64,000 nt of DNA from an uncultured Actinomycetes bacterium (GCA_963755025.1 CAVWIH010000033.1:32001-96000); one strand, 5' to 3'; positions 11,714-26,927 are shown, numbered from the stretch's first letter. A program made the numbers and translations. Notes: generated by a model not told the origin, from the sequence alone.

Positions 11714-12994
11714 CTAGTCGGCGAGCTCGACGACGGTGTCGAGGCCGTCGGCTACGGCCAGCACGCGGGCCGCGGGGCCGCGCGCGCGGCGCGCGGCGGC
11801 GACGGCTTCGTCGATCGTGCGGAAGGCGAGCAGCCCCATGCCCTCGATGAGGGCGCGGTCGCCGTCGCCCACCAGCGCGACGTGGTAGCTCGTCATGAGT
11901 TTGGCCATCATGTAGGCGCGCTGCCCGCCGGGCCCGAGGGGCTCGACGCGGCCGCGCGCCACCAGGTCGAGCGGCCGTTCGGCGGCCAGCAGCGCGCCGA
12001 AGTTGAGCTCGCTGGGGCCGTCGCCCACGCCGAGGGCGAGGTCGGCGCAGCAGGCGATCAGGCCGCCCGCGGCGATCGCCGGACGGGCGGCCATGCCCAC
12101 GTACGTGGCCGCCCGCGACGCCTGGTAGAGGCTGCGGTCCTTGGGCGCCGGGACGCCGGCGACGACCAGGTCGAAGGGCTGTTCGTGGCGCCGCACCCAG
12201 GCGGCGCCCCGGCCACGCGCCAGGCGTGCCTGGGCGCCGGCCGGGTCGCCGCCTGCTACCGCGGCGACCGCGCCTTGATCGTTCACCACGACGTTCAGCG
12301 CGTAGCGCAGCGTGGTGAACGCCGCGATCTCGCGCAGCGCCTGCTGAAAGGGGTTGCCCTCGAGCCGGCACAGGCTCACGGCGGGCTGGTCGAGGAATGC
12401 CGGGTGGTGGGTCCAGGCGATGGTCTGCTGCCCGGCGCAGCCGATCGCCACGGCCTTCACGCCGCCCGAGAAGCCGGCGTAGAGATGCGGCTCGACGATG
12501 CCCAGCGCGACCACCAGAGCGGCGCGCGCCACGACGTCGTTCATGAAGATCTCGCCGCCGCCAGAGGTGACGCCGAGCGGCACGCTGGTCTGGCTCAGGC
12601 CCTGGGCGTCGACCACACGCAGGCGGGCGCCCAGGGCGGGCCCGACGAGGGCCGCCTTCTCGGCGGCCGTGGTCGTGCGGTGCAGGCCACAGCCCACCAC
12701 GACGGTGATCTGATCGTCGCTCACGCCGGCCGCCGCGAGGCGCTCGAGCACGGGCGGCAGGAGCGCCGCCACCGGGCAGCCGCGGCTGGCGTCGGGCACG
12801 ACCACGGCGACGCTGCCGGCGCCGCGCGCGAGGGCGGAGAGCGGCGGCGCGTCGGGCGGCGCGTCGAGCGCCTCGGCGACGGCCGCCGGCAGATCGGGGA
12901 GAGCGGGCAGGCCGGAGGGCGCCTCAAAGCTGCAGGCCGCCTCGACCGGCAGGCAGCGCCGCCCCGAGAACACATACGGCGCCGGCGCGGTCAT
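11714..12994 (-). CDS. larA: LarA-family nickel-pincer racemase/epimerase
   Basis: PDASR, GCGLHR, EPHLYAGFSGGVK, LYQASRAA; ATG 12994 overlaps the upstream stop. Confidence 0.85.
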   Translation of the reverse strand: MTAPAPYVFSGRRCLPVEAACSFEAPSGLPALPDLPAAVAEALDAPPDAPPLSALARGAGSVAVVVPDASRGCPVAALLPPVLERLAAAGVSDDQITVVVGCGLHRTTTAAEKAALVGPALGARLRVVDAQGLSQTSVPLGVTSGGGEIFMNDVVARAALVVALGIVEPHLYAGFSGGVKAVAIGCAGQQTIAWTHHPAFLDQPAVSLCRLEGNPFQQALREIAAFTTLRYALNVVVNDQGAVAAVAGGDPAGAQARLARGRGAAWVRRHEQPFDLVVAGVPAPKDRSLYQASRAATYVGMAARPAIAAGGLIACCADLALGVGDGPSELNFGALLAAERPLDLVARGRVEPLGPGGQRAYMMAKLMTSYHVALVGDGDRALIEGMGLLAFRTIDEAVAAARRARGPAARVLAVADGLDTVVELAD

Positions 12995-13359
12995 GCGGCC
13001 GTCTCGCTGCCGCTCCGCCCGGCCGGCGCTCCACCGTTGCCGCCGCCCGGCGTGCTCGCCGCCGCGCCGTCGCCGTCGGGCTCGCCCGACGACGCGCCGT
13101 CGCGGGCCGAACCGGCGCGGGCCGCGCCGTCGCCGGCGCCGGCCGGCGGCCGGCGCTCGCGCGCCGGCGGGCAGACGAAGAAGAGCACGAGCGTGGCGAG
13201 CGCGCCCAGCGGCGGAAAGACGATGGCCGCGAGAAACCCGTAGACGAGCCAGTCGACCACGCGGCGCCCGGTGCGGCGGGCCGTGCGGTAGCCCACGTAC
13301 AGGCAGACCGGGAGCTGCACGGCGAACAGCGCTTGAACGACGGTCACGGGAAGGTGCAT
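12991..13359 (-). CDS. Small membrane protein
   Basis: Two to three hydrophobic segments; tightly spaced between pafBC and larA. Confidence 0.6.
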   Translation of the reverse strand: MHLPVTVVQALFAVQLPVCLYVGYRTARRTGRRVVDWLVYGFLAAIVFPPLGALATLVLFFVCPPARERRPPAGAGDGAARAGSARDGASSGEPDGDGAAASTPGGGNGGAPAGRSGSETAA

Positions 13360-13362
13360 CGG

Positions 13363-15602
13363 CTAAGCGTACCGTTCGAGGAGCCGTGCGACGACACTGC
13401 GCAGGGCGGCTGCGGCCGCCGGCGGGTCGAGCGGCAGCGCCTCGCCACCGAAGCGCAGCATCTCGTGGATGAGCCAGCGTTCGTCCAGGTAGGGCAGCAG
13501 GGCGAGGCACTCGCCGCCGGGCAGCGCCAGCGTGGGCTCGCGTTCGGCGGCCCAGCGCGCGACCGCGGCGGCATACCACACTGCGGCGCGGCGCGGCGCG
13601 TAGCGCTCGGAGCTGCGCACGCCCTCGCGCCGGTAGAGCTCGATCTCGACGTCGGCGCGCGGCGCGAATCGCTCGTCGCGCAGCAGGGCGCGCTTGGTCG
13701 TGGCCAGGCGGAAGGTGCGGGTGCCCTGCGAACGGCGGCACCAGGCGACGTAGTACCACTCGCCCCGCGTGCGCACCAGCAGGTAGGGCTCGACGGTGCG
13801 GCTCGTGGTCGTGCCGCTGCCTTCCGACCAGTACTCGATGTCGAGCAGGCGGTGCTGGCCGATGGCGGCGTTCACCGCATCGAGGATGGGCTCGGCGGTG
13901 GCCAGACGCTCGCCGGCGGCCACCGCCGGCGGCGCCGCGCGCCGCGCGCCGCGCAGCTTCTGCGCAGCGCTGTGCAGCGCCGCGCCGTGCGCGGTGGGGA
14001 GCTGGCCGCCGAGGATCTCGACGGCCAGCAGCAGCGTGTCGACCTGCAGCGGCGACAGGCGCGCCGGCCGCGCGAAGGCCGAGCTCGCCACGTCGCAGGT
14101 GACGACCAGCGACGATCCCTTGATCTCGGCCCACACGAGCGTGCCCTCGCCGCCGAAGTTGACGAGGTTCAGCAGCCTGATGTCGGCCTTGAGCTGGGCG
14201 CGCCTGGTGTCGAGCGCGGCGCAGACCCGCGAGACCGGCACCGGCGTCTCCTCGGCGCCGCCGTTCGCCTGGCAGACGCCATGCAGGTAGGTCATGAGCG
14301 TCGCGAGGCGGGTGAAGCGGTCGGCTTCGACCTGCCAGTCGGGATCGCCCGGGGGCTCGCTGAGCGCGGCCGTCGTGACCGCGGCGCGACGCGCGCGGGC
14401 GGCCGCGGCCGCGCTCGCGCGCCGCGGGCGTGGGGGGCGCGCGTCGGCTGGGCGCGCGCGTGGCGCGTGGGCTCGCAAGGTGGTCGCCGCCGAGCAGCTC
14501 GACCGCCCGCGCCGCCTCGAGCGGAGGAGCGTCGAGACGGTCGGCGAGCTTGCGCAGCTGGGCGCCGAGGCGCTCGCGCAACTCGGGCGGCTCGAGCAGC
14601 TCAGCCGCCTCGCCCATAGAGAGCACCCAGGCCACGAGCTGCTGCGCCGAGTTGTACGGGGTCGCATACAGGATGTCGGCCTTGCCGCCGGCGTCGGCGT
14701 CGGCGTCGGCGTCTGGGTCGGCCTGCCGGCGCGATCGTGCCACAGCGCGAGAAGTGCGCTTCGACCCACCAGGCCATGTCGGCGGCCACGCGCACGGTGG
14801 CGCTGCCCACCGGCTCGCCGAGCTGCCAGGCGGGACGGTCGAGGTAGTCGTCGAGGGTGAAGTCGGCCGGCGGCGAGAAGTCGTGTGGGGCACGGGTGGC
14901 GAAGGTCACCCGCGAGCGCAGGCGCGACAGGCGGAAGGTGCGGATGGCGCGCCGCAGGTGGCACCAGGCGATCAGGTACCACTCGTCGCCGACGAGCAGC
15001 AGGCCGTAGGGGTCGACCGTGCGCAGGAGCTCCTCGTCGCGGCCGATCGAGTAGTAGACAAAGGACACCGTCTTGCCGGCGGCGACCGCCTGCTGCAGCT
15101 TGGGCAGCGCCGTCGCGGCGCGCCGCGCCTCGCGTTCGGGCAGCACGCTGACCGGCGTCGCGGCGGCGGGGGAGAGCAGCTCGGGGCGGCCGTGGGTGAG
15201 GCTCAGCAGCGCCAGGCGCAGCGGCTCGCTGTAGGCGAAGCGGTGTTCGAGCACGAACAGGCAGGCAGCCAGCGCCGAAAGCTCGTCGGGGGTGAACTCG
15301 ATGGCCGGCAGGTAGTAGGCCGACGCCGGCAGCGCGTAGACCTCGGTCTCGCCCTCGACCTCGGTGTCGCCGACGATGCCGATGCCCAGGCCGGCGAGCT
15401 CGGCGCGGTCTTCGTAGAAGCGCCGCTTGAAGGCGTCGTCGCTCATCAGCGCGTAGCCCTCGACGCGCTCGCGGATCTCTACGGCAGTGGCCGGCCGGCC
15501 CGGCCGCGACAACAGGAAGGCCACGAGCGACAGCCGGCGGATGAGCTTGTCGGCGTCTTTCGAGAACCCCTCTTCGCGCGGCGGTCCGGGCGCTTTGGTC
15601 AC
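13363..15602 (-). CDS. Double HTH-WYL-WCX regulator (fused PafB-PafC), with frameshifts near 14730 and 14400
   Basis: N-half: KLIRRLSLVAFL, FKRRFYEDRAEL, RTVDPYGL..WYL..RTFRLSR; C-half: RFTRLATL, LKADIRLLN, RTVEPY..WYY..RTFRL; no clear separate start for the second half. Confidence 0.8.
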
Positions 15603-15611
15603 GTGGCCTCC

Positions 15612-16115
15612 TTAGCGTTCGTCGGGGCGCAGCGCGCGCGCCAGGACCTTGCGGTACTCGTCGTCGAACCCGTGGGCGGCAAAGAAGCCGCTCACGCCGT
15701 GGCGCAGCTCGCCGTCGGGACCGACCGCCACCCTGCAGGCCATGCAGCCCTGGTGCGCCGCCCAGGCCGCCGCGGCCTCGACGAGCGCCGCGCCGACGCC
15801 GCGGCGGCGCTCGGCCGGCGGCACGTAGAGCTCGCCGATCTCGGCCACGCGCAGGTGCTCGACGCTCGCCGACCAGCTCACGGTGACGACGCCGGCGGCC
15901 GGGCCGCTCGGGTCGTCGGGCGCGCCGCCCGCATCGTCGCGCAGCGCCAGCAGCACCGCGCCGCGCGGGTCGGCGAGCAGCGCAGCCAGGCCGGCGCGCT
16001 GCCGTTCGGCCGGCGCGGCGAGCCCCTCTTCGGCGAAGTAGCGACGCAGGAGGTCGCTTGCGACCTCCTGCGTCGCGTCGTCGGCCTTGCGTATGGTGAG
16101 TCCGCTGTCAGTCAT
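15612..16115 (-). CDS. GNAT acetyltransferase
   Basis: ELYVPPAERRRGVGAALV acetyl-CoA-binding motif A. Confidence 0.85.
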   Translation of the reverse strand: MTDSGLTIRKADDATQEVASDLLRRYFAEEGLAAPAERQRAGLAALLADPRGAVLLALRDDAGGAPDDPSGPAAGVVTVSWSASVEHLRVAEIGELYVPPAERRRGVGAALVEAAAAWAAHQGCMACRVAVGPDGELRHGVSGFFAAHGFDDEYRKVLARALRPDER

Positions 16116-16154
16116 GATCGGTGGTCGCGGCGCTGCGCCGCGGCGCAGCGCGGC

Positions 16155-17612
16155 TCAGACGGTCTGCTTTTCGGCCGCGGCGATGATCGCGTCGAACTCG
16201 CGGCCGAGGTCGTCGGGAAAGCCGATCGGCTCGGCGGCGAGGATCTCGCGCACCTTGGCCTGGGCCTTGTCGATGGTGCTGGGGGAGCCGGCGGACTTCC
16301 AGCCCTCGTAGGTGCCGGTCTCGCCGAGCTTGGCCTGCCAGAGCTCGCGCACGTGGGCGCGGGTGTGGTTGTCGAACAGGTAGTTGCCGTTGAAACCCAT
16401 CTTGACGATGAGGTCGCGGGCGATGGTCTCGTCGCTCACCTCGACGCCCCGCAGGATGCGCTTGATCATGCCGAGGATCTCGTCGTCGACCACCATGTTC
16501 TCGAGGCAGAGGATGCGCGAGCCGTCGAGCAGGCCGGTGCCGAAGGTCACGTCGGCGCCGTTGGCGTAGGCCATGAACATGGCGATCGTGTTCTCGTAGG
16601 CGCTCTGGATGCCCGGCTCTTTGGCCGTGGTGGCGCCGGCGCCGTACCAGGCCGGCACGCCGTAGAAGTCGGCCATGTGGCCCTGGACCGAGCGAATGAG
16701 GATGGCCTCGGGCGAGTTGCTGGCGTAAGCGCCGCTGTTCATGTACATCGCCGTGGGGCCGCCGCCGTGAATGACCGGCGCGCCGGGGTGAGCGAGTTGC
16801 ACGAGGGTGGCGCCGCTCACGAACTCGGCGTTGTTGACCACGGCCGAACCGGCGATGGTGATCGGGCCGGTGGCGCCGAGGATGGGCATGGGGTAGAAGC
16901 TCACCGGTATGCCGGCCTCGGCCAGCGTGAGCGCCAGGTCCATGCCGAAGCGCTCCTGGTGGAGCGGGCTCACGGTGCAGATGATGGCCGTGAAGGTGGG
17001 CCGTGCACGCAGCTCGTCGCGGCCGCCGGCCAGCGCGCTCGCCATCTCGATCAGGCTGCGCGCCTCCCAGTCCTCTTTGATCGACACCACGATGCTGTGC
17101 TTGGCCGAGTTGCGCACGCAGGCGTCGAACTCGTGCAGCACCCGGCTCTGCACGGGGCAGTCCTGGGCGCTGACCACGGCCGAGGTGGCCGAGACGTTGT
17201 CGAGCGCCTGCACGACGCGGGCGCAGTTTTCGAGGTCTTCTTTGCGCGACGAGCGCACCTCGCCGGTGACCGGGTCGCGGTACGACAGGCCGCAGCCGTC
17301 GGAGGAGATGTAGACGTGCTCGCCGTCGAGCGGCAGGTCGTACTCGGTGGTGCGTCCGCCCAGCGTGAAGGCGTGGGGCACGGTGGCGAGCGCCTTCTCG
17401 ACGACCTCGCCCGGGATCTTGGCGACGGTGGTCTCGCGGTCGACCGTGGCGCCGTGCTCTTCGAGCACGTCGAGGGCGTTCTGCGAGTGGAACATGACAC
17501 CGATGTTCTCGATGACGTCGAGGGTCGACTCGTGGATCTGCCTGATCTCGTCTGCGCCGAGCAGCTCGAGCTTGACTCGCTTGCCTACGTAGCAGCCGTC
17601 TGCGTGAGTCAT
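16155..17612 (-). CDS. Non-pyrrolysine MttB-family (trimethylamine methyltransferase superfamily) protein
   Basis: IHESTLDVIENIG, CTVSPL, GATGPITIAG, KEPGIQSAYE, GTGLLDG; no in-frame TAG. Confidence 0.92.
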   Translation of the reverse strand: MTHADGCYVGKRVKLELLGADEIRQIHESTLDVIENIGVMFHSQNALDVLEEHGATVDRETTVAKIPGEVVEKALATVPHAFTLGGRTTEYDLPLDGEHVYISSDGCGLSYRDPVTGEVRSSRKEDLENCARVVQALDNVSATSAVVSAQDCPVQSRVLHEFDACVRNSAKHSIVVSIKEDWEARSLIEMASALAGGRDELRARPTFTAIICTVSPLHQERFGMDLALTLAEAGIPVSFYPMPILGATGPITIAGSAVVNNAEFVSGATLVQLAHPGAPVIHGGGPTAMYMNSGAYASNSPEAILIRSVQGHMADFYGVPAWYGAGATTAKEPGIQSAYENTIAMFMAYANGADVTFGTGLLDGSRILCLENMVVDDEILGMIKRILRGVEVSDETIARDLIVKMGFNGNYLFDNHTRAHVRELWQAKLGETGTYEGWKSAGSPSTIDKAQAKVREILAAEPIGFPDDLGREFDAIIAAAEKQTV

Positions 17613-17796
17613 GTGGGTGTCCTTTCGCGAACAGGGGATGCGACGCGCGCCCGCCGGGGGCGAGCGCGTGGCATCACGACAGCGTAGGTGGACCTACGCG
17701 GCCGGGTGGTCTCGCGCTGAAGACTTGAGGCGGTTTCGTTTCACGCCACCACTCCTGGCTGTCGTGGGTGAGCCTTGGGCAACGTCGAGCGCCAGT

Positions 17797-19242
17797 CTAG
17801 CACTCGGCTGCGGCGATGATGTCGTCGAACTCGCGGCCCAGGTCGGCGGGGAACGGGGGCGCGTCGGCGGCCAGCAGCTCGTCGACCCTGGCCTGGGCGC
17901 GCGCGCTGGTGCTCGGCGCGCCGGCCGCCTGCCAGCCCTCGTAGGTGCCGGTCTCGCCGAGCTTGGCCTGCCAGAGCTCGCGCACGTGGGCGCGGGTGTG
18001 GTTGTCGAACAGGTAGCCGCCCTTGAAGCCGAGCTTGCCGATCAGCTCGACGGCGAGGTGCTCGCGGTCGACCGTGACGCCGCGCAGCAGGCGGCTCACC
18101 ATGCCGAAGACCTCATCGGCCACGACGAGCTCTTCGAGCGACATCTGGGTGACCGAGTCGAGCAGGCCCGCGCCGAACAGAAAGTCGGCGCCGGCGAACA
18201 GTTCGAGCATCATGCCGAGGGTGTTCTCGTAGGCCGCCTGGGCGCCGGGCTCCTTGTCTTTGGTGCCGCCCCAGCCCAGGCCGGCCGGCAGGCCGTAGAA
18301 GCGCGCCATCTGCGCCTGCACGGCGCGCAGCAGCAGGGCCTCGGGGACGTTGGCGAAGTAGGCGCCGGTGCGCATGTACAGCGCGGTCGGCCCGCCCGCG
18401 TGGATGAGCCGGGCGCCGGGGTGGGCGAGCTGGATGGCGGTGATCGCGCCGAGGATCTCGGCGTTATTGACGACCGCCGTGCCGGCCGGCGTGACGGGCG
18501 CCGTGGCGCCCAGGATGGGCATGGGGTAGAGCATCATGGGAATGCCGGCGTCGGCCAGCGTGAAGGCGAGGTCCATGCCGAAGCGCTCCTGGTGGAGCGG
18601 GCTCACGGTGCACAGGATGACCGAGAAGGTGGGGCGCTCGTAGAGCTCGGCGGCGCCCCCGGCCACGGCCTCGGCCATGCGGATGAGGTCGCGTGCCTCG
18701 GTCTCGTCTTTGACCGAGACCACGATGGCGTGCTTTTCGGAGGCGCGCATGCAGGCGTCGAACTCGTGCAGCACGCGCGTCTCGACGGGGCAGTCCTGGG
18801 CCGACACCAGGGCCGAGGTGGCGGAGATGTTGTCGAGGCCCTGGACGACCTTGGCGGCGGCGCTCACGTCGGTCTTGGTCGAGGCGCGCACCGTGCCGTC
18901 GTGCTCGCGCACGAACGTGGCGCAGCCGTCGGAGGTGATGTAGGCGTGCTGCCTGTCGAGCGGCAGGTCGTAGGCAGGCGTGCGGCCGCCGAGCGTGAAG
19001 CCGTGGGGCAGCGTGGCGAGGGCGCGCTCGACCAACTCGGGCGGCAGCTTGGCCACGGTGGTCTCGTAGTCGACCTGCGCGCCGGCTTCGGCGAGCACGT
19101 CGAGGGCGTGCCGCGAGTAGTAGACGCAGCCCACCTCGCTCAAGATGTCGAGCGAGGTCTCGTGGATGCGGCGTACCTCGTCGGGCGAGACGATCTCGAG
19201 CGGCCGGCGAGTGCCTACGCGGCGGGTCTCGGCGTGGGTCAC
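17797..19242 (-). CDS. Second non-pyrrolysine MttB-family methyltransferase
   Basis: IHETSLDILSEVG, CTVSPL, GATAPVTPAG, KEPGAQAAYE; GTG start preceded by aggagg. Confidence 0.92.
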   Translation of the reverse strand: MTHAETRRVGTRRPLEIVSPDEVRRIHETSLDILSEVGCVYYSRHALDVLAEAGAQVDYETTVAKLPPELVERALATLPHGFTLGGRTPAYDLPLDRQHAYITSDGCATFVREHDGTVRASTKTDVSAAAKVVQGLDNISATSALVSAQDCPVETRVLHEFDACMRASEKHAIVVSVKDETEARDLIRMAEAVAGGAAELYERPTFSVILCTVSPLHQERFGMDLAFTLADAGIPMMLYPMPILGATAPVTPAGTAVVNNAEILGAITAIQLAHPGARLIHAGGPTALYMRTGAYFANVPEALLLRAVQAQMARFYGLPAGLGWGGTKDKEPGAQAAYENTLGMMLELFAGADFLFGAGLLDSVTQMSLEELVVADEVFGMVSRLLRGVTVDREHLAVELIGKLGFKGGYLFDNHTRAHVRELWQAKLGETGTYEGWQAAGAPSTSARAQARVDELLAADAPPFPADLGREFDDIIAAAEC

Positions 19243-19250
19243 GGGGCCTC

Positions 19251-20333
19251 CTAAAGGTCGGTGGCGGTCGCCGGCGAGTCGCCGGCGGCGATGAAGCGTT
19301 GCGTGACGTACGGCGACGTGACGGCGCGTACCAGCGCGTCGTAGTCGCAGGCGAACTCGACGATCGTGCCCGGGCGCAGCTCGCGTGGCGTGATGAGCAC
19401 GCCGACGTCGCTCGTCATGCCGGCCAGCCAGGCGCCGTCGATCAGGGGGCGCAGGCCCTGCGGCTCGCAGTCGCGGCGCCCGAGCGCCACGAGGGTGTGC
19501 CAGGCGGGCTCGTCGGGCAGCGCGGTGTCGGGCACGTGGCCGAAGGCGTCGAGCCCGGCGGCCCCGGGCGGCGCCGGGGGCTTGAAGATCGATTCGAGCA
19601 CGGTCGCGCTGAGGATGGGGTCGACGCGGTCGAGTCCGTCGAGCGGCGAGTTCGACACGAAGTCGTAGCCGTACAGCGGTCCGCCGCCGGCGCGGATCTC
19701 GGTGCGGAAGCGCGGCTTGAAGCCGTCGAGGTGCTGCAGGCAGCAGGAGCCGCCCAGCGAAAGCACGGGCGTGTCGATCGCGGCCGCCTCGGCGACGGCG
19801 GCGAGCACCCGTTCGGCGCGGCGGAACATCGCCAGGCTGGGGAGCTGGCCCGACAGGCAGGCGAAGTTGACCGAGATGCCGGAAAGCACGGTGCCGGGCA
19901 GGCCGGCGAGCCGGCGGGCGGCCTCGCCGGCCAGGCCGGGCAGCACGCCTTCGCGGCGGTCGCCGAGGTCGACGGTGAGCAGCAGTTCGATGGGCAGGCC
20001 GGGCGCGCGGACGCCCAGGGCGGCGGCCGTGGACGGGTCGCACAGCAGGACGCGATCGGCGACCTGGGCGGCCGCCGGTACGTCGCGGGGCTCGGGCGCG
20101 CGCAACAGGGTGAGCGGCGCCAGCGCGTGCGCGGCGAGGCGCACGAGGGCGGGCAGGCGGGAGTCGGCGAGGCCGGCTGCGCCGGCCTCGAGCATGGTGC
20201 GCCCGACCGACGGCTCGCCGTCGATGGCTTTGGTCACGCCGACGAGCTCGATGCCGGCGAGCAGCAGTCGTTCGGCGAGGGTGCGCGTGGCACGGTCGAT
20301 GGCGTCGAGATCGAGGGTGAGCTGGGGCTGCAT
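19251..20333 (-). CDS. Fold-type III PLP racemase, ornithine racemase (Orr)/YhfX-like
   Basis: GVTKA (PLP lysine), LADSRL, DLGDRREG, NFACLSG, SLGGS, DAFG, GMTSD. Confidence 0.82.
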   Translation of the reverse strand: MQPQLTLDLDAIDRATRTLAERLLLAGIELVGVTKAIDGEPSVGRTMLEAGAAGLADSRLPALVRLAAHALAPLTLLRAPEPRDVPAAAQVADRVLLCDPSTAAALGVRAPGLPIELLLTVDLGDRREGVLPGLAGEAARRLAGLPGTVLSGISVNFACLSGQLPSLAMFRRAERVLAAVAEAAAIDTPVLSLGGSCCLQHLDGFKPRFRTEIRAGGGPLYGYDFVSNSPLDGLDRVDPILSATVLESIFKPPAPPGAAGLDAFGHVPDTALPDEPAWHTLVALGRRDCEPQGLRPLIDGAWLAGMTSDVGVLITPRELRPGTIVEFACDYDALVRAVTSPYVTQRFIAAGDSPATATDL

Positions 20334-20552
20334 GGCGACCTGTGGTGTCGGCGTTGGCCTGCCCGGACGGCAGGGGGACCCACCTGCTTCTAGTAGTCGT
20401 GAAACGTGTCGCCGAAGGTGGCGGCGCAGCGCTTTCGCGAGATGGATGTCGGGCGTGTACGCAAAAGTCGAACGCTCGGTCGGTGGCCGCGCGGGGACAG
20501 TATAATCGGGCGGCAGGGTTGCGCCAACTGAGGCACGGACGGTGAGGCAGGC

Positions 20553-22010
20553 ATGGGCGATCTCGGCGGCGACATCACGGTGCGCGACGGCCACCTTACC
20601 CTCGACGGAGTCGACCTGGTCGAGCTCGCCCGGCGGGCGCCGACGCCGTTCTTCGTCTACTCGCCGCGGCGCATCCGCTGGAACGTGAGCAGCCTGGTCA
20701 ACGCCTTCACCCGGCGCCACCTCGACACCGAGATCTACTTCGCCAGCAAGGCCTGCTCGAACCTGTGGTTCCTGGGCGAGGTGCGGCGCACCGGCATCAA
20801 CGTCGAGGTCAACTCGGGCGGCGAGCTCTGGAAGGCGCGGCGCGCCGGCTTTGCCCCCCGGCAGATCATCTTCAACGGCGTCGCCAAGACGCGCGACGAG
20901 ATCGGCGCCGCGCTGGTCGCCGGCGTCGCCGGCCTCACGGTCGACTCGCTCTACGAGCTCGAGCGCATCGGCGAGGTGGCCGCCGCGCTCGACTGCGCCG
21001 CGCCGGTCGACTTGCGCATCGACCTGAACGTGCCGACGCTGACCCACCCCGGCCTGGTGACCGCCCACGGCGGCAAGTTCGGCATCGACTTAGACGACGC
21101 GCCCGACGCCTTTGCCTACGCGGCCGCTAGCAAGGCGCTCGACCTGCGCGGCCTGCACGTGCACGTGGGCTCGCAGATCACCGGCGCCGAGCCCTACCGG
21201 GCGGCCCTCGGCAAGGCGCTCGACCTGGTCGACGAGCTCGCCGCGGGCGGCATCCGCCTGGAGCGCCTGAACGCGGGGGGCGGCTTCGCCATCCCGTATC
21301 GCGACCAGTCCGTGTGCGAGTCGTCGGATTACTTCTGCGCGCCGCTCACGATCGACGACTACGCCGAAGCCATCTGCGAGACCCTCGAGCGGCGCGCTCC
21401 CGGGCTCAAGCTGCTGCTCGAGCCAGGCCGCTTCATCGCCGGGAACACGGCCCTGCTCGTGACGACCATCGAGAACGCCAAGGTCAAGGGCCTGCGCGAC
21501 CCCGCGGGCATCCGCGTGGGCGAAGAGCGCTGGCTCACGGTCGACGCCGGCTTCAACACCCTGCTCGAGCACACCAACTACCGCTGGTACTACCGCGCCG
21601 TGGTGGCCAGCCGCGCCGACGAAGACGCGGACACGCCGTTCCGCCTGGCGGGGCCGCTGTGCGACGGCGGCGACGTGTTCGCCGGCGACGACGACACGCC
21701 CTACCGGCGCTTTCCGGCGGCGAGCGCGCCCGGCGACGTGGTCGCGTTCTTCGACGCCGGCGCCTACACGCTCGAGCTCATGACCCCCTACAACGCCCGG
21801 CCCACGGCCGCCGCCTACGCCGCCGAGCGCGGCGAGGCCCGTCCGATCCGCCTGGCCGAGGGCCTCGAGGGACTGGTGTCGGCCGACGTCGCTCCCGGCG
21901 TCGCAGCAGACCGCTCGAGCGCTCCTGCGGCCGCGCCCCGCTCGAGCGCTCCCGCCGCGGCGCCCGCAACGCGTGCAACGCGCGGCGCGAAGGCCGACGA
22001 CTGCGGGTAG
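20553..22010 (+). CDS. LysA-family PLP decarboxylase, most like D-ornithine/D-lysine decarboxylase (DokD)
   Basis: FASKACS, DSLYELE, THPGLVTA, HVHVGSQ, EPGR, LAGPLCDGGD, DAGAYT; TATAAT at 20501. Confidence 0.8.
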   Translation: MGDLGGDITVRDGHLTLDGVDLVELARRAPTPFFVYSPRRIRWNVSSLVNAFTRRHLDTEIYFASKACSNLWFLGEVRRTGINVEVNSGGELWKARRAGFAPRQIIFNGVAKTRDEIGAALVAGVAGLTVDSLYELERIGEVAAALDCAAPVDLRIDLNVPTLTHPGLVTAHGGKFGIDLDDAPDAFAYAAASKALDLRGLHVHVGSQITGAEPYRAALGKALDLVDELAAGGIRLERLNAGGGFAIPYRDQSVCESSDYFCAPLTIDDYAEAICETLERRAPGLKLLLEPGRFIAGNTALLVTTIENAKVKGLRDPAGIRVGEERWLTVDAGFNTLLEHTNYRWYYRAVVASRADEDADTPFRLAGPLCDGGDVFAGDDDTPYRRFPAASAPGDVVAFFDAGAYTLELMTPYNARPTAAAYAAERGEARPIRLAEGLEGLVSADVAPGVAADRSSAPAAAPRSSAPAAAPATRATRGAKADDCG

Positions 22011-22130
22011 CGCGCGTAACGCGCGGTGCGAAGGCCGACGACTGCGGGTAGCGTGCGTAATGCGCGGTGCGAAGGCCGACGACTGCACGTAGCGCCGGCC
22101 GCCAAGTCCGACGACTGCGGGTAGCGCGCG
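21977..22130 (+). repeat. 41-bp tandem repeat, 3 copies plus a degenerate 4th
   Basis: Core gcgaaggccgacgactgcgggtagcg; aggccgac at 21991, 22032 and 22073, variant at 22105. Confidence 0.9.
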
Positions 22131-22153
22131 CGGCGACTGGTCGGAACGGCGGC

Positions 22154-23254
22154 CTACAGCGCGGCGGCGAGCTGCGCGTCGAGGCCGGCCGTGACGGCGA
22201 ACTTGAGCGCGAGGTCGCAGAAGGCGCGCGTGTTGGGCAGCGCGCGACGGTGCAGCTGGGCGGGCTGGGCGAACGCAGCCACCGGCATGATGACCTCGAC
22301 GCCGGCCGCCCGGCAGGCCGACACGACCTCGTCGCGGCGCGCGCGCGACGGCGCCAGGGCGATCGTCCACTGCCAGTTGGGCTCTCCGCCCTCGCCCACG
22401 TCGAGCACCGCCAGGCCGGCGGCGTGCAGCCGCCGGCTCACCGTCGAGGCGAGCTCGCGGCGGCGAGCGACGGCCTCGGTGAGCCCGGCGAGCACGCGCG
22501 CTCCGGCCGATGCCGCAGCTTCGTCGATGCGGTAGCCGTTGACCATGCCGTCGGCACAGTCGTGCGAGAAGCATTCGTCGTCGGTGGCGATGACGGTCGA
22601 GCGCAGCGCGATCAGGTGGCGTTCGAGGTTCTCAGCGGCGGTCGAGATGAGGCCGCCCGCCGACGGCGAGCCGCCGAAGGCGAAGGTCGCGAGCTTGCCG
22701 GTCGAGCCCACCGGGTGGCCCCCGACTGTGGCGCCCAGCGCCGCGCGGCAGTCTTCGATCAGGGCGATGCCGCGGTCGTCGGCGACGCGGCGCAGATCGT
22801 CGGTGGGGGAGGGGTACCCGGCTTCGTGGACGGTGAGCAGTGCCCGCGTACGCGGACCGATGAGGCGGTTGGCGTCGGCGGCTTCGAGGAACGGCCGGTG
22901 AGGCGCCTCGATGTCGGCGAAGATGGGGCGGCCGCCGGCGAGGATGACGAGGTTGGCGATCGCCGACGACGAGACGGCCGGCATGATGACTTCGCCGCCG
23001 TCGCCCACGTCGATCGCGAGCAAGGCGAGGTGCAGGGCGGCCGAACCTCCGGCGACCGGCACGACGCGCCGTTCGAGGAGGGCCTCGGCGGCCTTCTGCA
23101 GGCGTACCGCCGCGGCTCCCTGGGTGAGCCAGCCGGACTTAAGGGCGCCCGCTGTAAGGTCGGCGCTCTCGCGCTCGCTGTCGCCGGTCACGGTCCGCTT
23201 GCGTGGGAACCTGACCACCTTGTCGTCGCTCGATTCCACCTGCTTGCCCCTCAT
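22154..23254 (-). CDS. DegT/DnrJ/EryC1/StrS-like protein lacking the catalytic lysine loop
   Basis: SGWLTQG, GGSAALHLAL, PIFADI, IEDC; the SF-x3-K loop reads TFAFGGSPSAGG. Confidence 0.78.
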   Translation of the reverse strand: MRGKQVESSDDKVVRFPRKRTVTGDSERESADLTAGALKSGWLTQGAAAVRLQKAAEALLERRVVPVAGGSAALHLALLAIDVGDGGEVIMPAVSSSAIANLVILAGGRPIFADIEAPHRPFLEAADANRLIGPRTRALLTVHEAGYPSPTDDLRRVADDRGIALIEDCRAALGATVGGHPVGSTGKLATFAFGGSPSAGGLISTAAENLERHLIALRSTVIATDDECFSHDCADGMVNGYRIDEAAASAGARVLAGLTEAVARRRELASTVSRRLHAAGLAVLDVGEGGEPNWQWTIALAPSRARRDEVVSACRAAGVEVIMPVAAFAQPAQLHRRALPNTRAFCDLALKFAVTAGLDAQLAAAL

Positions 23255-23528
23255 CTGTCGCTACCGCATGACACCGCAAGAGCTGCGTACCCGTTCTCGC
23301 TGGAAACAAGGCGTGTGGCGGCGGGCGGCGGCGGGGCGGCGGCGGGCGGCGGACGGGGGTCGTAGCGCCGCGACGCGAGGCGGGGGACGGGCGGTCCGCG
23401 GGAGCGTGGAACCGCGACGCGCGGCGGGCGGCGGCGGGCCGGGGACCGGCCCGCCGCCGCCCGCCGCGAGCACCGGTCGGCTGCAGGATGCCGCGCGCAT
23501 GCTCTGGCGTGAGTCGCGACGCGGATGG

Positions 23529-24695
23529 TCAGATGACGACCGTGGCCCGCGTATGGGCGAAGCGGTAGCGGCAGGAGGAGCTGCCCAGCTTCCAGTAGAC
23601 GTGGTAGTGGTCGGTGGTGTGGGCGTCGACCACCCGTTGCCCGGCGCTGTTGGTGCCGACGAGCTCGGCCACGTGGTCCCAGGTGCCGTCGCCGGTCCAG
23701 TCGTAGTAGATGAAGTCGCCGGTCGTGAGGTCGCTGACCGACGACACGAAGTCGGTGTATTTGAGGTTCCAGGCGCCCTGCTGGTTGGTGACCGCGATCC
23801 AGGCGTGGCTGTAGGTGTCGTTGCCCGGCGCGCTGCTGCCGTTCTTGTCGTACCACCAGCCCGAGGCGTAGGTGCTGCCGAACTGCGGGTAGCCGCCGGC
23901 GTACATGACCTGCGAGCCGAAGTTCGCGCAGTCGGCGCTGAAGCTCGTGTAGGTGGGGTTGTAGGAGAGCGCGTAGCGGTCGGCGTAGGCCTTGGCGGCG
24001 GCGCGGTCGTAGCTGAGCTGGGCCACGTAGCCGGGCGCCGCGTCGACGGCCGTGGGCGCCGGCGCGACCGTGGGTACGTTACGCACGCGTTGTTCGAGGC
24101 GGCTCGCCGCCGCCGCGACGGCCTTTGCCGGCGCACCGGCGGCTTCGAGCAGGCGCGGCGTGAGGTCGGACGTGTAGCGGTCGGCGGTGACCAGCCAGCG
24201 GCCGTGACGGTGCACGAGGGTGAGCACGTGATCGAGGCCCTCGCCGTCTGAGTCGGTGCGGCCGGCGCGGCTTGTCCAGGTGTCGAGGGTGACGGCGCGA
24301 GCGCCGACCGTGGCGACGCCGGTCGTGGGCGAGACGTGCACGGCGCTCAGCGTGATGTGGCAGGCGACCGCCGTGGTGGTGTGGCCCAGTGCGGCGGCCA
24401 GACGGCGCGCGCCGACCGCCAGGGTAGCCTCGCGGCGCGCGAGCGCCGTGCCCGGCGCGCAACGCGCGGCGAGGCTTCGGGCCTGGGCGGGGCCGAGCAC
24501 GGCGTGGGCGCGCGCCTGCAGGTAGGCGGCGGCCGCCGCCGCGGGCCCGGCGGCGGCGCGGGCCGCGGCGGCACGCGGGCCGTGGAGCGCCGCCGCGACC
24601 GGGGCGCGGTGTGCGGCGGCCAGCGGCGGCGCCGCGGCGAGTGGGACGACGAGCAGCGCAAGCAGCGCCGTTCGCGGGTGCGGGAGGTGGAGCAT
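23529..24695 (-). CDS. Secreted Amidase_6-domain (YhbB-like) putative cell-wall hydrolase
   Basis: Signal peptide; YDRAAAKAYA, DCANFGSQ..AGG, GDFIYYDW, DH, DAHT. Confidence 0.85.
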   Translation of the reverse strand: MLHLPHPRTALLALLVVPLAAAPPLAAAHRAPVAAALHGPRAAAARAAAGPAAAAAAYLQARAHAVLGPAQARSLAARCAPGTALARREATLAVGARRLAAALGHTTTAVACHITLSAVHVSPTTGVATVGARAVTLDTWTSRAGRTDSDGEGLDHVLTLVHRHGRWLVTADRYTSDLTPRLLEAAGAPAKAVAAAASRLEQRVRNVPTVAPAPTAVDAAPGYVAQLSYDRAAAKAYADRYALSYNPTYTSFSADCANFGSQVMYAGGYPQFGSTYASGWWYDKNGSSAPGNDTYSHAWIAVTNQQGAWNLKYTDFVSSVSDLTTGDFIYYDWTGDGTWDHVAELVGTNSAGQRVVDAHTTDHYHVYWKLGSSSCRYRFAHTRATVVI

Positions 24696-24717
24696 GGCGA
24701 CCCCCTTTCGGGTCGGT

Positions 24718-25359
24718 TTACGGGCTTGTGCGGACCGCCTTGACCAGCCAGTCCCCCGCGCTCCGGTCTCGCGCCAGAGTGAAGTACAGCGTCGTCGGGC
24801 CGCCCGGCAGCGGGCAGCCCCGCCGCACCGTGAGGCGCACGGTCGCGGCGAGGGTGACGACGTCGGCGCGAGAGTCTCCCCAGACTCGCGCCGAGATGAA
24901 GTCGATACGACGGATGGTGTGCAGGCTGCGCCACGGCCAGTCGCGCCTGCCGGCGAGCAGCCGGTGGGCGGCCGCCAGGCGGCGCTTGCTGACGAGGCGG
25001 CTGAACTGCGCGACGGTGCAGGCCGCTTCGAGGCCCCTGGTGCCGACGCTCTCGGCAGCCTGCGTGCCGCCGGCCGGTGCGCCCTGCACCGGTGCGCCGC
25101 CGGCCGACGCGCCTTGCACCGGCGTGCCCTGCGCTTGCGCGTCTTGCACCGGCGCGTCGCCGGCCGACGCGCCGGGGAGCGGCGAGCCCGAGGCCGCAGG
25201 CCTCGGGCTCGCCGCTACGGCGGTGGGCCCTGCCGGCGCCGAGGGGCCGAGTGCCGTCCGCCCGCAGGCCGCCCAGACCCCCACGACCGCGAGCACCGCG
25301 GCGCCGGCGACCAGCCAGCGGGCGGCGGCGACGAGCAGGCGATGGGAGCGCAGGTCCAT
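24718..25359 (-). CDS. Exported protein with C-terminal NTF2-like (DUF4829-like) domain
   Basis: Hydrophobic N-terminus, PVQ repeats, C-terminal TTLYFTLAR..WLV. Confidence 0.5.
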   Translation of the reverse strand: MDLRSHRLLVAAARWLVAGAAVLAVVGVWAACGRTALGPSAPAGPTAVAASPRPAASGSPLPGASAGDAPVQDAQAQGTPVQGASAGGAPVQGAPAGGTQAAESVGTRGLEAACTVAQFSRLVSKRRLAAAHRLLAGRRDWPWRSLHTIRRIDFISARVWGDSRADVVTLAATVRLTVRRGCPLPGGPTTLYFTLARDRSAGDWLVKAVRTSP

Positions 25360-25473
25360 GCCGTCGATGCTGCGCCCGTGCCGCGAGAGCGACAAGGATG
25401 ACGACCGGCTCTTCGCGGTGACGTTCGCGAGGGGAGCGACGATGGCCACGTTCGGGCCGCGACCCGCGCGGGT

Positions 25474-25507
25474 ATTGTTGACAAGACTTATCGAGTTCCT
25501 GTACGAA
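25474..25507 (+). promoter_or_regulatory. Promoter with overlapping IscR/Rrf2-like operator
   Basis: ATTGTTGACAAGACTTATCGAGTTC (TTGACA at 25478), an AT-rich patch resembling IscR type-1 boxes, directly before the Rrf2 gene. Confidence 0.6.
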
Positions 25508-25517
25508 TCGACCGTCG

Positions 25518-25961
25518 ATGAATATCTCCGCCAAAAGCAAGTACGCCGTGCGCGCCTTGGTCGAGCTCGCCGAACGCAGCCAGTCGCAGCCCGAGCGCCT
25601 CGTGCGGCTGACCGACGTGGCCGGCGCGCGCGGCATCCCGCTGCAGTTCCTCGAGCAGCTCTTCGCGGCGCTGCGCCGCGCGGGGATCGTCAACAGCCGG
25701 CGCGGCGCCAGCGGCGGGTTCCTGCTCGCCCGGCCGGCGGCCAAGATCACCGTCCTCGAGGTGGTCGAGGTGCTCGACGGCCTGGTGTCGCCGGCGGTGT
25801 GCACCCAGGGCGAGTGCCAGCGCATCGAAGAGTGCGGCCCCGCGGCCGTGTGGCTCGAAGCCAAGGAGGCCCTCGAGCAGGTGTTGCGCCAGACCACGAT
25901 CGCCGATCTCGTCGAGCGCGAGCGCCTGCGCGTGCCGCACGAGGCCATGTACTACATCTAG
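25518..25961 (+). CDS. Rrf2-family regulator (IscR/CymR-like) with three Cys
   Basis: YAVRAL, FLEQLF, SRRGASGGF, CTQGECQRIEEC. Confidence 0.92.
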   Translation: MNISAKSKYAVRALVELAERSQSQPERLVRLTDVAGARGIPLQFLEQLFAALRRAGIVNSRRGASGGFLLARPAAKITVLEVVEVLDGLVSPAVCTQGECQRIEECGPAAVWLEAKEALEQVLRQTTIADLVERERLRVPHEAMYYI

Positions 25962-25973
25962 CCGGAGGACCGC

Positions 25974-26927
25974 GTGAACATCGCAGACGACATCACCACC
26001 CTGATCGGCGGCACCCCGCTCGTGCGCCTGCGGGCGCTCTCGGAGCGCAGCGGCGCGAACATCGTGGGCAAGCTCGAGTCGTTCAACCCGGGCGGCAGCG
26101 TCAAGGACCGCATAGGCCTGGCCATGGTCGACGCCGCCGAGCAGGCCGGCACCATCGCGCCGGGACGCACCACCCTGGTCGAGCCGACCAGCGGCAACAC
26201 CGGCATCGCCCTGGCCCTCATGGCCGCGGCGCGCGGCTACCGGCTCGTCCTCACCATGCCCGACACATTCAGCATCGAGCGGCGCAACCTGCTGCGCGCC
26301 TACGGCGCCGAGCTCGTGCTCACGCCCGGTGCCGAGGGCATGCGCGGCGCCATCGCCCGCGCCGGAGAGCTCGTGGCCGCGGCCGACGACGCCTTCATGC
26401 CGCAGCAGTTCGAAAACCCGGCCAACCCGGCCATCCATCGCGCCACCACCGCCGAAGAGATTTGGCGCGACACCGACGGCGCGGTCGACGCGTTCGTGGC
26501 CGGCGTGGGCACCGGCGGCACTCTCACGGGCGTGGGCCAGGTGCTCAAGGAGCGCAAGCCCGGGGTCAAGGTCTACGCGGTCGAGCCGGCCAAGTCGCCG
26601 GTGCTGTCGGGCGGTCAGCCCGGGCCGCACCGCATCCAAGGCATCGGCGCCGGCTTTATCCCCGCCGTCCTCGACGTCGACGTCTACGACGAGATCATCA
26701 AGGTGCCGGGCGACAAGGCCATGGAGACGGCCCGCGCCCTGGCGTCGGGCGAGGGCATCCTGGTGGGCATCTCGGCCGGCGCCAACGCCTTCGCCGCCGC
26801 CGAGATCGGCGCGCGCCCCGAGTACCGCGGCAAGCTCATCGTCACCGTGCTGTGCGACACCGGCGAACGCTACCTCTCGACGCCCCTGTTCGCCGATCAG
26901 GGCGCGCCGGCCATGACGGGCGGCTGA
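25974..26927 (+). CDS. cysK: Cysteine synthase A
   Basis: [34 protein letters not shown]. Confidence 0.97.

Follow-up and report, generated by a model that had tools for sequence, protein, structure and literature searches.

A racemase gene coupled to two non-pyrrolysine MttB genes in an uncultured actinobacterium: a possible route for the demethylation of side-chain N-methylated basic amino acids

Positions 16155 to 22010 of a 64,000-nucleotide stretch of DNA from an uncultured Actinomycetes bacterium (GCA_963755025.1, CAVWIH010000033.1:32001-96000; this whole stretch is hereafter called the window) carry a gene for a pyridoxal 5'-phosphate (PLP)-dependent racemase, followed by two genes of the MttB methyltransferase superfamily and accompanied by a divergently oriented decarboxylase gene. 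The cluster is a real, conserved and unusual arrangement of known families. The window has a G+C content of about 72% and belongs to contig C33 of the host genome, G000 (assembly of 3.37 Mb, completeness 84%). Its features of interest are the following, with positions counted from the first letter of the window (aa, amino acids; ORF, open reading frame).

19251-20333, minus strand: Fold III PLP racemase of the OrnR/Orr family, first of the enzyme genes in the operon; 360 aa, PF01168 60.2 bits
17797-19242, minus strand: MttB1; GTG start, 481 aa, PF06253 296.2 bits
16155-17612, minus strand: MttB2; 485 aa, PF06253 291.8 bits
20553-22010, plus strand: DokD-like Fold III PLP decarboxylase, divergent from the racemase operon; 485 aa, PF02784 159.2 bits, PF00278 53.2 bits
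20499-20527, minus strand: sigma-70-like promoter of the racemase operon; -35 TTGGCG at 20527-20522, 17-nt spacer, -10 TATACT at 20504-20499
20390-20464, minus strand: leader ORF; presumed TTG start, 24 codons, ending ...TFGDTFHDY-stop
20358-20374, minus strand: small hairpin between the leader ORF and the racemase ribosome-binding site; 6-bp stem CCUGCC/GGCAGG, 5-nt loop
15612-16115, minus strand: GNAT acetyltransferase, operon end, just outside 16155-22010; PF00583 39.5 bits

The original prediction for this locus saw in these genes a candidate pathway for N-methylated basic amino acids. Profile searches recovered every gene that it had listed, in its place or immediately beside it. The gap of 8 bp that it noted between the racemase and MttB1 genes was also found: the racemase stop codon TAG (19253-19251) is followed by the MttB1 start codon GTG (19242-19240), and a GGAGG motif overlaps the stop codon. 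No terminator-like site was found on the minus strand from the racemase gene to the GNAT gene. It may be added that the racemase gene ends with TAG in a host that decodes some TAG codons as pyrrolysine (Pyl; see below). At this junction (19240-19253, minus strand), read-through would add three further codons before reaching a TGA that overlaps the MttB1 start codon (GTGA).

Among the NCBIfam models, the racemase matches only that of Orr (NF040742), at 125.7 bits, below the cut-off of 480, and it shares 29% identity with Salmonella OrnR. For the latter enzyme, the accessible text of the source gives Lys36 and Cys164 as the catalytic residues, the Cys replacing the tyrosine of alanine racemase, and Arg129, Arg220 and Gly222-223 as the PLP site (PMC13397332). 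The corresponding motifs are all present in the window protein, where VTK35A, DRREG, N-F-A-C and R-A-G-G-G align with K36, R129, N161/C164 and R220-G222-G223 of OrnR, respectively. The NFAC motif, which carries the catalytic Cys, is kept in 43 of 43 racemase orthologues. It is established chemistry that a PLP racemase requires a free alpha-amino group. Therefore, the N-methyl group of any substrate of the racemase must be on the side chain.

Two paralogues of the racemase are encoded elsewhere in the host genome. The closest one (C29, 53% identity) lies in an operon with a gene of the arginine-deiminase/dimethylargininase superfamily (G000:C29:43381-45522; L109 7382-9523), which scores 98.5 bits with the dimethylargininase model (cut-off 340), and the pair is divergent from a polar-amino-acid ATP-binding cassette (ABC) transporter. 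Racemases of the C29 type (48-54% identity) were found in only three of 60 other genomes of the family. The second paralogue (C17, 33% identity, 357.1 bits with the Orr model) adjoins an ornithine carbamoyltransferase gene.

The PF06253 scores of MttB1 and MttB2, to be compared with a cut-off of 25, place both proteins in the MttB superfamily. With the model of the Pyl-containing trimethylamine methyltransferase (TIGR02369), they reach 382.5 and 423.8 bits, respectively, both below the cut-off of 525. At the position of Pyl334 in the solved MttB, a Gly is found in MttB1 and an Ala in MttB2, without TAG codon, and neither frame has an internal stop. Both proteins are thus non-Pyl, as had been proposed. 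They are 64% identical to each other (307/481), and the remaining MttB paralogues of the host genome are at most 36% identical to either. The loops P[AS]GLG[WY]GGTK.K of MttB1 and PAW[YF]GAGATTAK of MttB2 are each kept in 38 of 43 orthologues. Compared with solved structures, the two proteins give about 203-222 bits with MtgB (2QNE, 9YCE) and about 198-221 bits with the trimethylamine methyltransferase (7XCL).

The glycine-betaine site of MtgB is formed by Y97, R312, H348 and F356, and R312 is described as conserved in all MttB members of known function, the substrates of which are acidic quaternary amines (PMC13080624, accessible text). In a phmmer alignment to 2QNE, uncertain by one or two positions near H348, these four residues correspond to Cys/Gly/Phe/Val in MttB1 and to Cys/Trp/Gly-or-Phe/Ser in MttB2. 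Loss of the Arg was considered as a clue to a non-acidic substrate and rejected: the Arg is kept by one of the 17 non-Pyl paralogues of the host genome and is missing from the other 16. Because most of the MttB repertoire of the host shows this loss, it is not diagnostic of MttB1 and MttB2. The expansion of the family in the host and its relatives is extreme, with 34 MTTB-profile matches in the 3.37-Mb host genome, corresponding to 22 long genes plus fragments, and up to 66 first-look candidates in relatives. A sub-threshold match to the Rfam element PYLIS_3 was observed within MttB1 (18168-18278, minus strand; 29.1 bits, gathering threshold 38, E 0.0088). It begins at the codon aligned with the pyrrolysine position and probably reflects coding homology rather than a working element.

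The decarboxylase had been likened to Salmonella DokD rather than to diaminopimelate (DAP) decarboxylase, LysA, on account of four motifs (DSLYELE, TH..LVTA, LAGPLCDGGD and DAGAYT.E..T.YN.RP). These motifs do align with Salmonella DOKDC, LAGPLCDGGD being identical in the two proteins. The best NCBIfam model is that of DokD (NF052544, 339.2 bits, below the curated cut-off of 700); the score with the lysA model (TIGR01048) is 304.1 bits, just above the cut-off of 297.9. In the PDB, the best match is Salmonella DOKDC (286.6 bits versus 200.2 for the best solved DAP decarboxylase), and the identity with Salmonella DokD is 38% (165/440). Glu339, in VDAGFNTLLEHTNY, stands where the four LysA sequences compared have an Arg and where Salmonella DokD has an Asp. 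In the LysA rows, NDL.RP.LY is found together with CES.D or CET.D, whereas all Thermoleophilia rows and DokD have Glu or Asp for the Arg, and CDGGD. Thus, the window protein has the acidic distal-site residue and the CDGGD motif of DokD, and lacks the Arg and the CES motif of the LysA distal-carboxylate site. Phillips et al. are said to have found in 2019 that an Arg-to-Asp change at the distal site turns DAP decarboxylase into the D-ornithine/D-lysine decarboxylase DOKDC. An acidic residue at this site suits a cationic side chain.

In a tree of 24 rows, built without outgroup and with long branches for the host LysA and DokD, the window protein, seven orthologues, 11 paralogues and Salmonella DokD are split from the four LysA sequences, that of the host included, with a support of 100/99. 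This agrees with the grouping first proposed. Moreover, a canonical lysA gene was found separately on C26 (462.6 bits versus 304 for the window gene), so that the window gene is not the only lysA candidate of the host, a situation that would have spoken against the original prediction. From its motifs and its place in the tree, the decarboxylase is of the D-ornithine/D-lysine type, not LysA, and D-specificity is predicted. All the relatives recovered by a protein-similarity search with the decarboxylase were close ones of metagenomic origin (57-89% identity), and their automatic names were mixed.

Two further DokD-like clades (50-58% identity, with the acidic distal residue and CDGGD) occur in many Thermoleophilia (L061, L086-L108), in unrelated and mostly housekeeping contexts. 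The neighbourhoods of these paralogues (L091, L094, L106), considered as a possible clue, were uninformative, with housekeeping or mixed genes. In one metagenome-assembled genome (MAG; L073 1-5488), a DokD-like paralogue (58%) is separated by 12 bp from a corrinoid protein gene, followed by a distant MttB gene (25% identity to MttB2) and an amino-acid permease gene. This operon was not retained as independent support because the link with the decarboxylase is found in only one of three loci, the MttB orthologues in L120 and L121 having no adjoining decarboxylase.

Conservation of the cluster was studied in related genomes. MttB1 adjoins the racemase in 15 of 15 actinobacterial racemase loci. 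The decarboxylase is present at 13 of them; of the remaining two loci, one has none within 8 kb and the other is on a contig too short for a decision. In a survey of decarboxylase loci (80 kept of 108 found), the racemase lies beside the decarboxylase in 52. These 52 loci contain MttB1 (48), MttB2 (46), WYL (43), Amidase_6 (43), DegT (13) and GNAT (7) genes, and are flanked by CysE-like (40), CysK-like (40), Rrf2 (39) and LarA-like (31) genes. The adjacency, on which the original prediction had made its proposal depend, is therefore conserved. The GNAT gene, which had been listed after MttB2, is not a constant member of the operon (seven of the 52 loci). Its product belongs to no specific NCBIfam family (best AAC(6'), 32 bits, cut-off 305), and it is a lineage-restricted accessory gene. 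Among the matches listed in 250 other genomes of the class, all those with at least 55% identity to MttB2 are in the window's own family.

Forty-three genomes of this family, common to the MttB, racemase and decarboxylase samples, were tallied by hand, and 38 of them have MttB1 and MttB2. MttB1/2, the racemase and the decarboxylase are all found in 32 genomes, in two of which the cluster is split over contigs; four genomes have none of them. An orthologous racemase adjoins MttB1/MttB2 in 36 of the 38 genomes having the pair. As for the other two, the slot is occupied in G080 (counted among the 32) by a racemase gene of 31% identity, and G134 has a racemase of another clade, divergent from a leader ORF-MttB1-MttB2 unit. 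In five genomes (G008, G038, G050, G098 and G110; 93-100% complete), racemase, MttB1 and MttB2 are found without a DokD-like gene. The best DokD-model scores in these genomes are 127-164 bits, the level of the best Fold III decarboxylase match, whereas the window gene reaches 339 bits; the block of G008 and G050 has lost the Amidase_6 gene as well as that of the decarboxylase. Because these five genomes keep the unit without the decarboxylase, the selected unit would consist of the racemase and the MttB pair, the decarboxylase being an optional branch. The racemase, not the decarboxylase, is the obligatory partner of the MttB pair, and the place of the decarboxylase as a core member of the pathway, as originally predicted, could not be upheld. 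The Amidase_6 product was considered as a lipid or acyl-ornithine deacylase and rejected, having a signal peptide and a cell-wall-hydrolase-type domain and travelling with the syntenic block.

A second association of a racemase with MttB genes was found in related genomes. Racemases of the other clade (G134, G201:C11, G056:C3) share 63-77% identity with one another, 46-47% with the C17 Orr-like paralogue and 30-34% with the window racemase. The seven Thermoleophilia loci carrying this clade all have two to five MttB-family matches within 6 kb; four distant matches of the clade in other phyla are without MttB genes. RamA and lysine-2,3-aminomutase-like radical S-adenosylmethionine (SAM) genes occur in six of the seven loci, an SBP_bac_3 polar-amino-acid binding-protein gene in five, and the island is bordered by an EamA transporter gene in G201 as well as in five of the seven loci. 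The gene order is EamA, RamA, lysine-2,3-aminomutase-like radical SAM, MttB, other-clade racemase, MttBs, SBP_bac_3, MttB (L132, G201:C11:276000-290000; L134-L140). The island is present in other genera of the family and absent from the host genome. The main MttB of the island belongs to the clade nearest to MttB1/2 (about 40% identity). The gene content of this sister island suggests a lysine-type chemistry. The idea of a methylated basic amino acid thus gains independent support from the second racemase clade, whose MttB island also encodes a lysine-2,3-aminomutase-like protein and a binding protein for polar amino acids, and also from the closest paralogue of the window racemase, which sits with a dimethylargininase/arginine-deiminase-like gene.

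Upstream of the racemase, the sigma-70-like site at 20527-20499 (minus strand) is the only one between 14400 and 22300, 0.2 being expected from shuffled sequences. Its TATACT element is kept in 47 of 48 orthologous spacers and is invariant in a nine-sequence alignment, and the promoter lies about 50 nt from the decarboxylase start codon. An in-frame ORF ending with H-D-[YF]-stop was found in 45 of 49 leaders. These 45 copies represent 40 distinct DNA sequences, with summed entropies of 8.5, 10.4 and 12.6 at codon positions 1, 2 and 3, and the two commonest 16-residue tails are encoded by seven and six different DNA sequences, respectively. Because third positions vary most and because 13 DNA sequences encode these two tails, the pattern fits a translated peptide, and the ORF is a candidate regulatory leader peptide or small protein. 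It is absent from the MttB-less locus L071 and, in G134, stands directly before MttB1. When the window ORF is compared with that of a 95%-identical relative (L011/L030), RTRPTSIS replaces RRAPDIIS in the middle of the ORF, apparently as a result of two frame shifts that compensate each other; neither the length nor the C-terminal half has changed. The hairpin (20358-20374) appears in the centroid fold and is kept in close relatives, no covariation being shown; the window leader folds no better than shuffled sequences (z = 0.04). A riboswitch search with Rfam (E up to 1) over 13000-26000 returned only the sub-threshold PYLIS_3 match inside MttB1, and an Rfam search of the longer leader of L045 gave nothing relevant. 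The promoter and the 24-codon leader ORF probably control the operon.

The remaining components of a corrinoid-dependent pathway were sought elsewhere in the host genome. As had been remarked in the original prediction, the window has no corrinoid protein or activator: the two RamA-type activases are encoded on other contigs (C39 and C8), and the sole B12-binding domain of the window is not a methyl carrier. This domain (61769-62764, plus strand), considered as a corrinoid carrier, was rejected because it is joined to a radical-SAM domain (62761-63540). The two domains lie in overlapping frames (61769-63540, plus strand) that are probably a single gene for a B12-dependent radical-SAM protein, divided by a frame shift or by an error in boundary calling. 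The host genome contains 17 B12-binding matches, about 10 of which are in open frames of 207-255 codons (small corrinoid proteins), as well as two weak URO-D-family (MT2-like) matches located between corrinoid genes on C34. A complete set of MT2, two corrinoid proteins, MttB and ABC transporter was observed in a related MAG.

An oxidative ornithine pathway is encoded on C17. Ord (435.9 bits), OrtA and OraE (1307 bits) are over their curated cut-offs, OrtB (truncated gene call) and Or-4 are below them, and OraS was not among the proteins scanned. In C17:88380-95276 and C17:101789-102905 (L128, L110), the ornithine set is found about 6 kb away from the Orr-like racemase and ornithine carbamoyltransferase genes. 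Because C17 carries both an Orr-like racemase and the ornithine pathway, D-ornithine is expected to be an ordinary intermediate in the host.

The host genome also contains a tRNA-Pyl with a CUA anticodon (C10:71096-71168), a PylS C-terminal domain (C10:75537-76259; 277.8 bits, cut-off 178.15) and a tRNA-Sec (C24:14507-14604). TAG is found exactly at the pyrrolysine position in five of the 22 long MttB paralogues (C14:383574, C14:392349, C16:23863, C21:4604 and C34:134667). Together, these features would amount to a dual expansion of the genetic code in an actinobacterium. Pyrrolysine itself is not new in this lineage, since expression of pyrrolysine-type mttB and mtbB by Actinobacteriota was reported (PMC10805028). 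According to the same source, in its accessible part, the genus Bog-752 shows high methylotrophic activity, and the methylotrophic Actinobacteriota with the highest activity in a thawing mire are relatives of the lineage (PMC10805028).

Related MAGs, as judged by protein similarity, are titled Thermoleophilia, Actinomycetota or Actinomycetes, and their isolate names refer to bog, fen, palsa, soil and lake sediment. The host is an uncultured soil or peat actinobacterium and, in the reading favoured here, a methylotrophic, pyrrolysine-using member of the Thermoleophilia. Contigs from RNA libraries of three runs cover small shares of the window. Those of the wetland metatranscriptome X19 are 90-95% alike over MttB2, MttB1 and the racemase; those of X18 and X20 are identical over the decarboxylase, and in X20 also over the 5' end of the racemase gene and the leader. 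These contigs indicate presence in the library only, not transcription, strand, ends, level or co-transcription, and bins without cover carry no evidential weight. Downstream of the GNAT gene, on the same strand (11714-15602, minus), two tandem WYL/WCX/HTH_PafC regulators (PafB/PafC-like) and a LarA-like protein of the lactate-racemase family are encoded. The first WYL gene begins 9 bp past the GNAT stop codon, and both WYL genes are apparently fused in L071 (725 aa).

Taken together, these data lead us to propose, with a probability of roughly 45%, that the cluster serves the corrinoid-dependent demethylation of a basic amino acid (ornithine or lysine type) whose side chain is N-methylated, racemisation feeding D-specific sinks. 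MttB1 and MttB2 would each move a methyl group from the nitrogen of the substrate to the Co(I) form of a corrinoid protein encoded elsewhere. RamA would maintain this protein in its active state, and an MT2 enzyme would unload it. Each paralogue may be specific for its own methylation state, or the two may have distinct but related substrates. The OrnR-like racemase would interconvert the L- and D-amino acids, at a point either preceding or following demethylation, and the carbon skeleton would then enter D-specific sinks, either the neighbouring DokD-like decarboxylase, yielding a diamine, or the D-ornithine aminomutase pathway of the host. An ornithine- or lysine-type amino acid methylated on the side-chain nitrogen is the simplest substrate because the racemase needs a free alpha-amino group and belongs to a family acting on basic amino acids, because the decarboxylase is of the D-ornithine/D-lysine type, and because MttB proteins remove N-methyl groups. 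Substrate, order of steps, stereochemistry and regulation are all inferred, and so are the stepwise demethylation and the acetylation of the diamine put forward in the original prediction. Decarboxylation and acetylation would be optional extras rather than core steps. Overall, the original prediction is supported in part: the idea of a methylated basic amino acid has gained support and the adjacency is conserved, but the decarboxylase and the GNAT protein are not core members. Trimethylornithine lipids of wetland planctomycetes, described from northern wetlands, from tundra soil and from boreal lakes, where conditions are often low in oxygen and methanogenic (PMC7828035, accessible text), or protein-derived methyl-lysine are plausible sources of the substrate; neither is evidence for it.

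A more ambitious version of this proposal, which we regard as rather doubtful, is that side-chain-methylated basic amino acids are demethylated here by a corrinoid-dependent pathway, the first of its kind, with a dedicated MttB pair obligatorily coupled to an OrnR-type racemase, the pathway or its sinks being D-specific, and with a metabolite-sensing leader peptide as a switch. Candidate substrates would then be mono-, di- and trimethyl-ornithine from planctomycete lipids, or protein methyl-lysines.

Several points weigh against the demethylation of a methylated basic amino acid. The functions of all these proteins are predicted from sequence. A Gly or a Trp at the position of MtgB R312 does not match well an amino acid that has a carboxylate group, unless binding takes place in a different mode. 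The locus itself has no transporter, corrinoid protein, MT2 or activator gene, and dozens of MttB genes per genome raise the chance of adjacency. The order of the region (LarA-like, PafBC-like WYL pair, cluster, Amidase_6, Rrf2, CysK, CysE, UvrD) is syntenic throughout the family, the genomes of which are kin. Because this whole block, with its housekeeping flanks, is syntenic, the adjacency is partly inherited and is weak evidence when taken alone. Besides the five genomes having the racemase and the MttB pair without a DokD-like gene, one of the 43 (G201) keeps the racemase and the decarboxylase without an MttB1/2 orthologue. These two genes can therefore exist as a pair on their own, which is also their situation in Salmonella. 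Finally, since their MttB proteins belong to nearest clades, the two racemase-MttB associations may share one origin.

An alternative explanation is that of two unrelated modules lying side by side in the syntenic block: an OrnR-DokD pair converting L-ornithine or L-lysine into the D-form and then into a diamine, as in Salmonella, and MttB proteins acting on an unrelated quaternary amine, co-transcription being a by-product of insertion next to the racemase. The flanks are syntenic throughout the family, the racemase and the decarboxylase are found without the MttB genes in one genome, the racemase and the MttB genes without the decarboxylase in five, the enterobacterial OrnR-DOKDC operon is self-sufficient, and MttB1 and MttB2 lack the carboxylate-binding Arg of known members. 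We nevertheless consider this explanation unlikely, given that the racemase and MttB1 genes are coupled over 8 bp and that 36 of the 38 genomes with the MttB pair have retained the racemase beside it, a non-orthologous racemase being found in or beside the slot in the other two. In addition, all seven island loci combine MttB genes with a racemase of a different clade, and most of them also encode lysine-type enzymes and a binding protein for polar amino acids. The leader ORF is lacking at the locus without MttB genes and stands directly before MttB1 where the racemase is missing.

It can also be imagined that racemisation and D-specific decarboxylation come first, the MttB substrates being methylated diamines or polyamines such as trimethyl- or methyl-putrescine or -cadaverine. 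The Gly and Trp replacing the Arg that binds the acidic group, the promoter region shared by the decarboxylase and the operon, and the acidic distal residue of the decarboxylase would all agree with such substrates. This order of events is quite improbable in view of the five genomes, 93-100% complete, in which racemase, MttB1 and MttB2 persist without a DokD-like gene (127-164 versus 339 bits), and of the loss of the same Arg in 16 of 17 host paralogues. Since pyrrolysine is built from 3-methyl-D-ornithine, the racemase and the decarboxylase might instead handle D-ornithine-type compounds of pyrrolysine metabolism rather than an external substrate, and lie beside MttB genes for this reason. 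The host does have tRNA-Pyl, a PylS C-terminal domain and, in five mttB genes, a TAG codon where pyrrolysine would be inserted. This role is very improbable: MttB1 and MttB2 are themselves non-Pyl, the pyl genes are on another contig (C10), no pylBCD-family gene is present among those scanned against Pfam in 7543-32094, and the second racemase island carries uptake and lysine-type catabolic genes. That the decarboxylase is a LysA isozyme, as its slight excess over the lysA cut-off and the label diaminopimelate decarboxylase given to close relatives in several public sources might suggest, is hardly credible beside the canonical lysA gene elsewhere in the genome, the Glu and CDGGD in place of the LysA Arg and CES.D, the PDB scores and the 100/99 split of the tree.

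If the demethylation of side-chain-methylated basic amino acids were confirmed, it would add a new substrate class to the MttB superfamily. Methyl groups, and putrescine or cadaverine, would then have a further, newly recognised origin in anoxic peat. Characterised non-Pyl MttBs act on a few acidic quaternary amines, as far as described in the accessible text of PMC13080624, and many homologues, about two dozen of them in the host, have no known substrate. In this context, coupling to a racemase constrains the substrate to an alpha-amino acid with a free alpha-amino group, which leaves a short list of compounds. As no other group of methylotrophic actinobacteria in a thawing permafrost mire is reported to be as active as this lineage (PMC10805028), an unrecognised pool of methyl donors would bear on the flow of carbon to and from methane. 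The OrnR-DokD pair would moreover be given a physiological context, and the leader ORF is a candidate for a new regulator of the leader-peptide type.

Parts of this locus recall known systems. With its short conserved leader ORF followed by a hairpin upstream of an ornithine-type enzyme gene, it resembles speF, which is preceded by SpeFL, an ornithine-sensing arrest peptide having a HIRRXXH sensor and a Phe-rich effector domain and stalling ribosomes at its stop codon (10.1101/604074, accessible text). One subgroup of leaders has P-H-D-R-R-R (P-H-D-[RH]-R-R), which recalls the P-HIRR of SpeFL in another register; the subgroup of the window is without the Arg pair. Unlike SpeFL, which has 34 residues with the basic patch about 21 residues from the stop codon, the leader peptides described here would have 22-24 residues with the patch about 12 residues from it, and they have neither HIRRXXH nor a Phe-rich effector domain. 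Because of this mismatch in motif and register, homology with SpeFL was rejected and the likeness regarded as superficial.

In clostridial oxidative ornithine degradation (Orr, OraSE, Ord, OrtAB), an Orr-type racemase makes D-ornithine for a D-specific B12-dependent enzyme, a logic close to that proposed for the window. However, the C17 ornithine pathway of the host has its own Orr-like paralogue (357 versus 125.7 bits with the Orr model), on another contig and without MttB. Like the characterised non-Pyl MttBs (MtgB, MtcB, MtpB, MtyB and MthB), MttB1 and MttB2 belong to PF06253 and have no pyrrolysine codon, and corrinoid, MT2-like and RamA genes are present in the genome. Unlike MtgB, they have none of the four glycine-betaine-binding residues, and unlike all these enzymes, they are always paired and coupled to an amino-acid racemase, in a locus without corrinoid, MT2 or RamA genes.

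The closest parallel is the OrnR-DOKDC system of Salmonella enterica (STM2358, ornithine racemase; STM2360, D-ornithine/D-lysine decarboxylase), in which a Fold III racemase with the Lys/Cys catalytic pair is likewise associated with a DokD-type decarboxylase, and of which the physiological role is itself unknown according to the accessible text of PMC13397332. The original prediction knew of no description of this combination of genes. No publication linking MttB with an amino-acid racemase, trimethyllysine or ornithine racemase was found in a literature search made mostly at listing level, with supplements outside its scope; the racemase-DokD pair, on the other hand, was already known from Salmonella. 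The identities with the Salmonella proteins are only 29% (racemase) and 38% (decarboxylase), and the two genes are divergent in the window, whereas those of Salmonella lie in one operon with two permeases. Moreover, unlike in Salmonella, the racemase of the window leads into two MttB genes, and the decarboxylase is dispensable in five of 38 related genomes.

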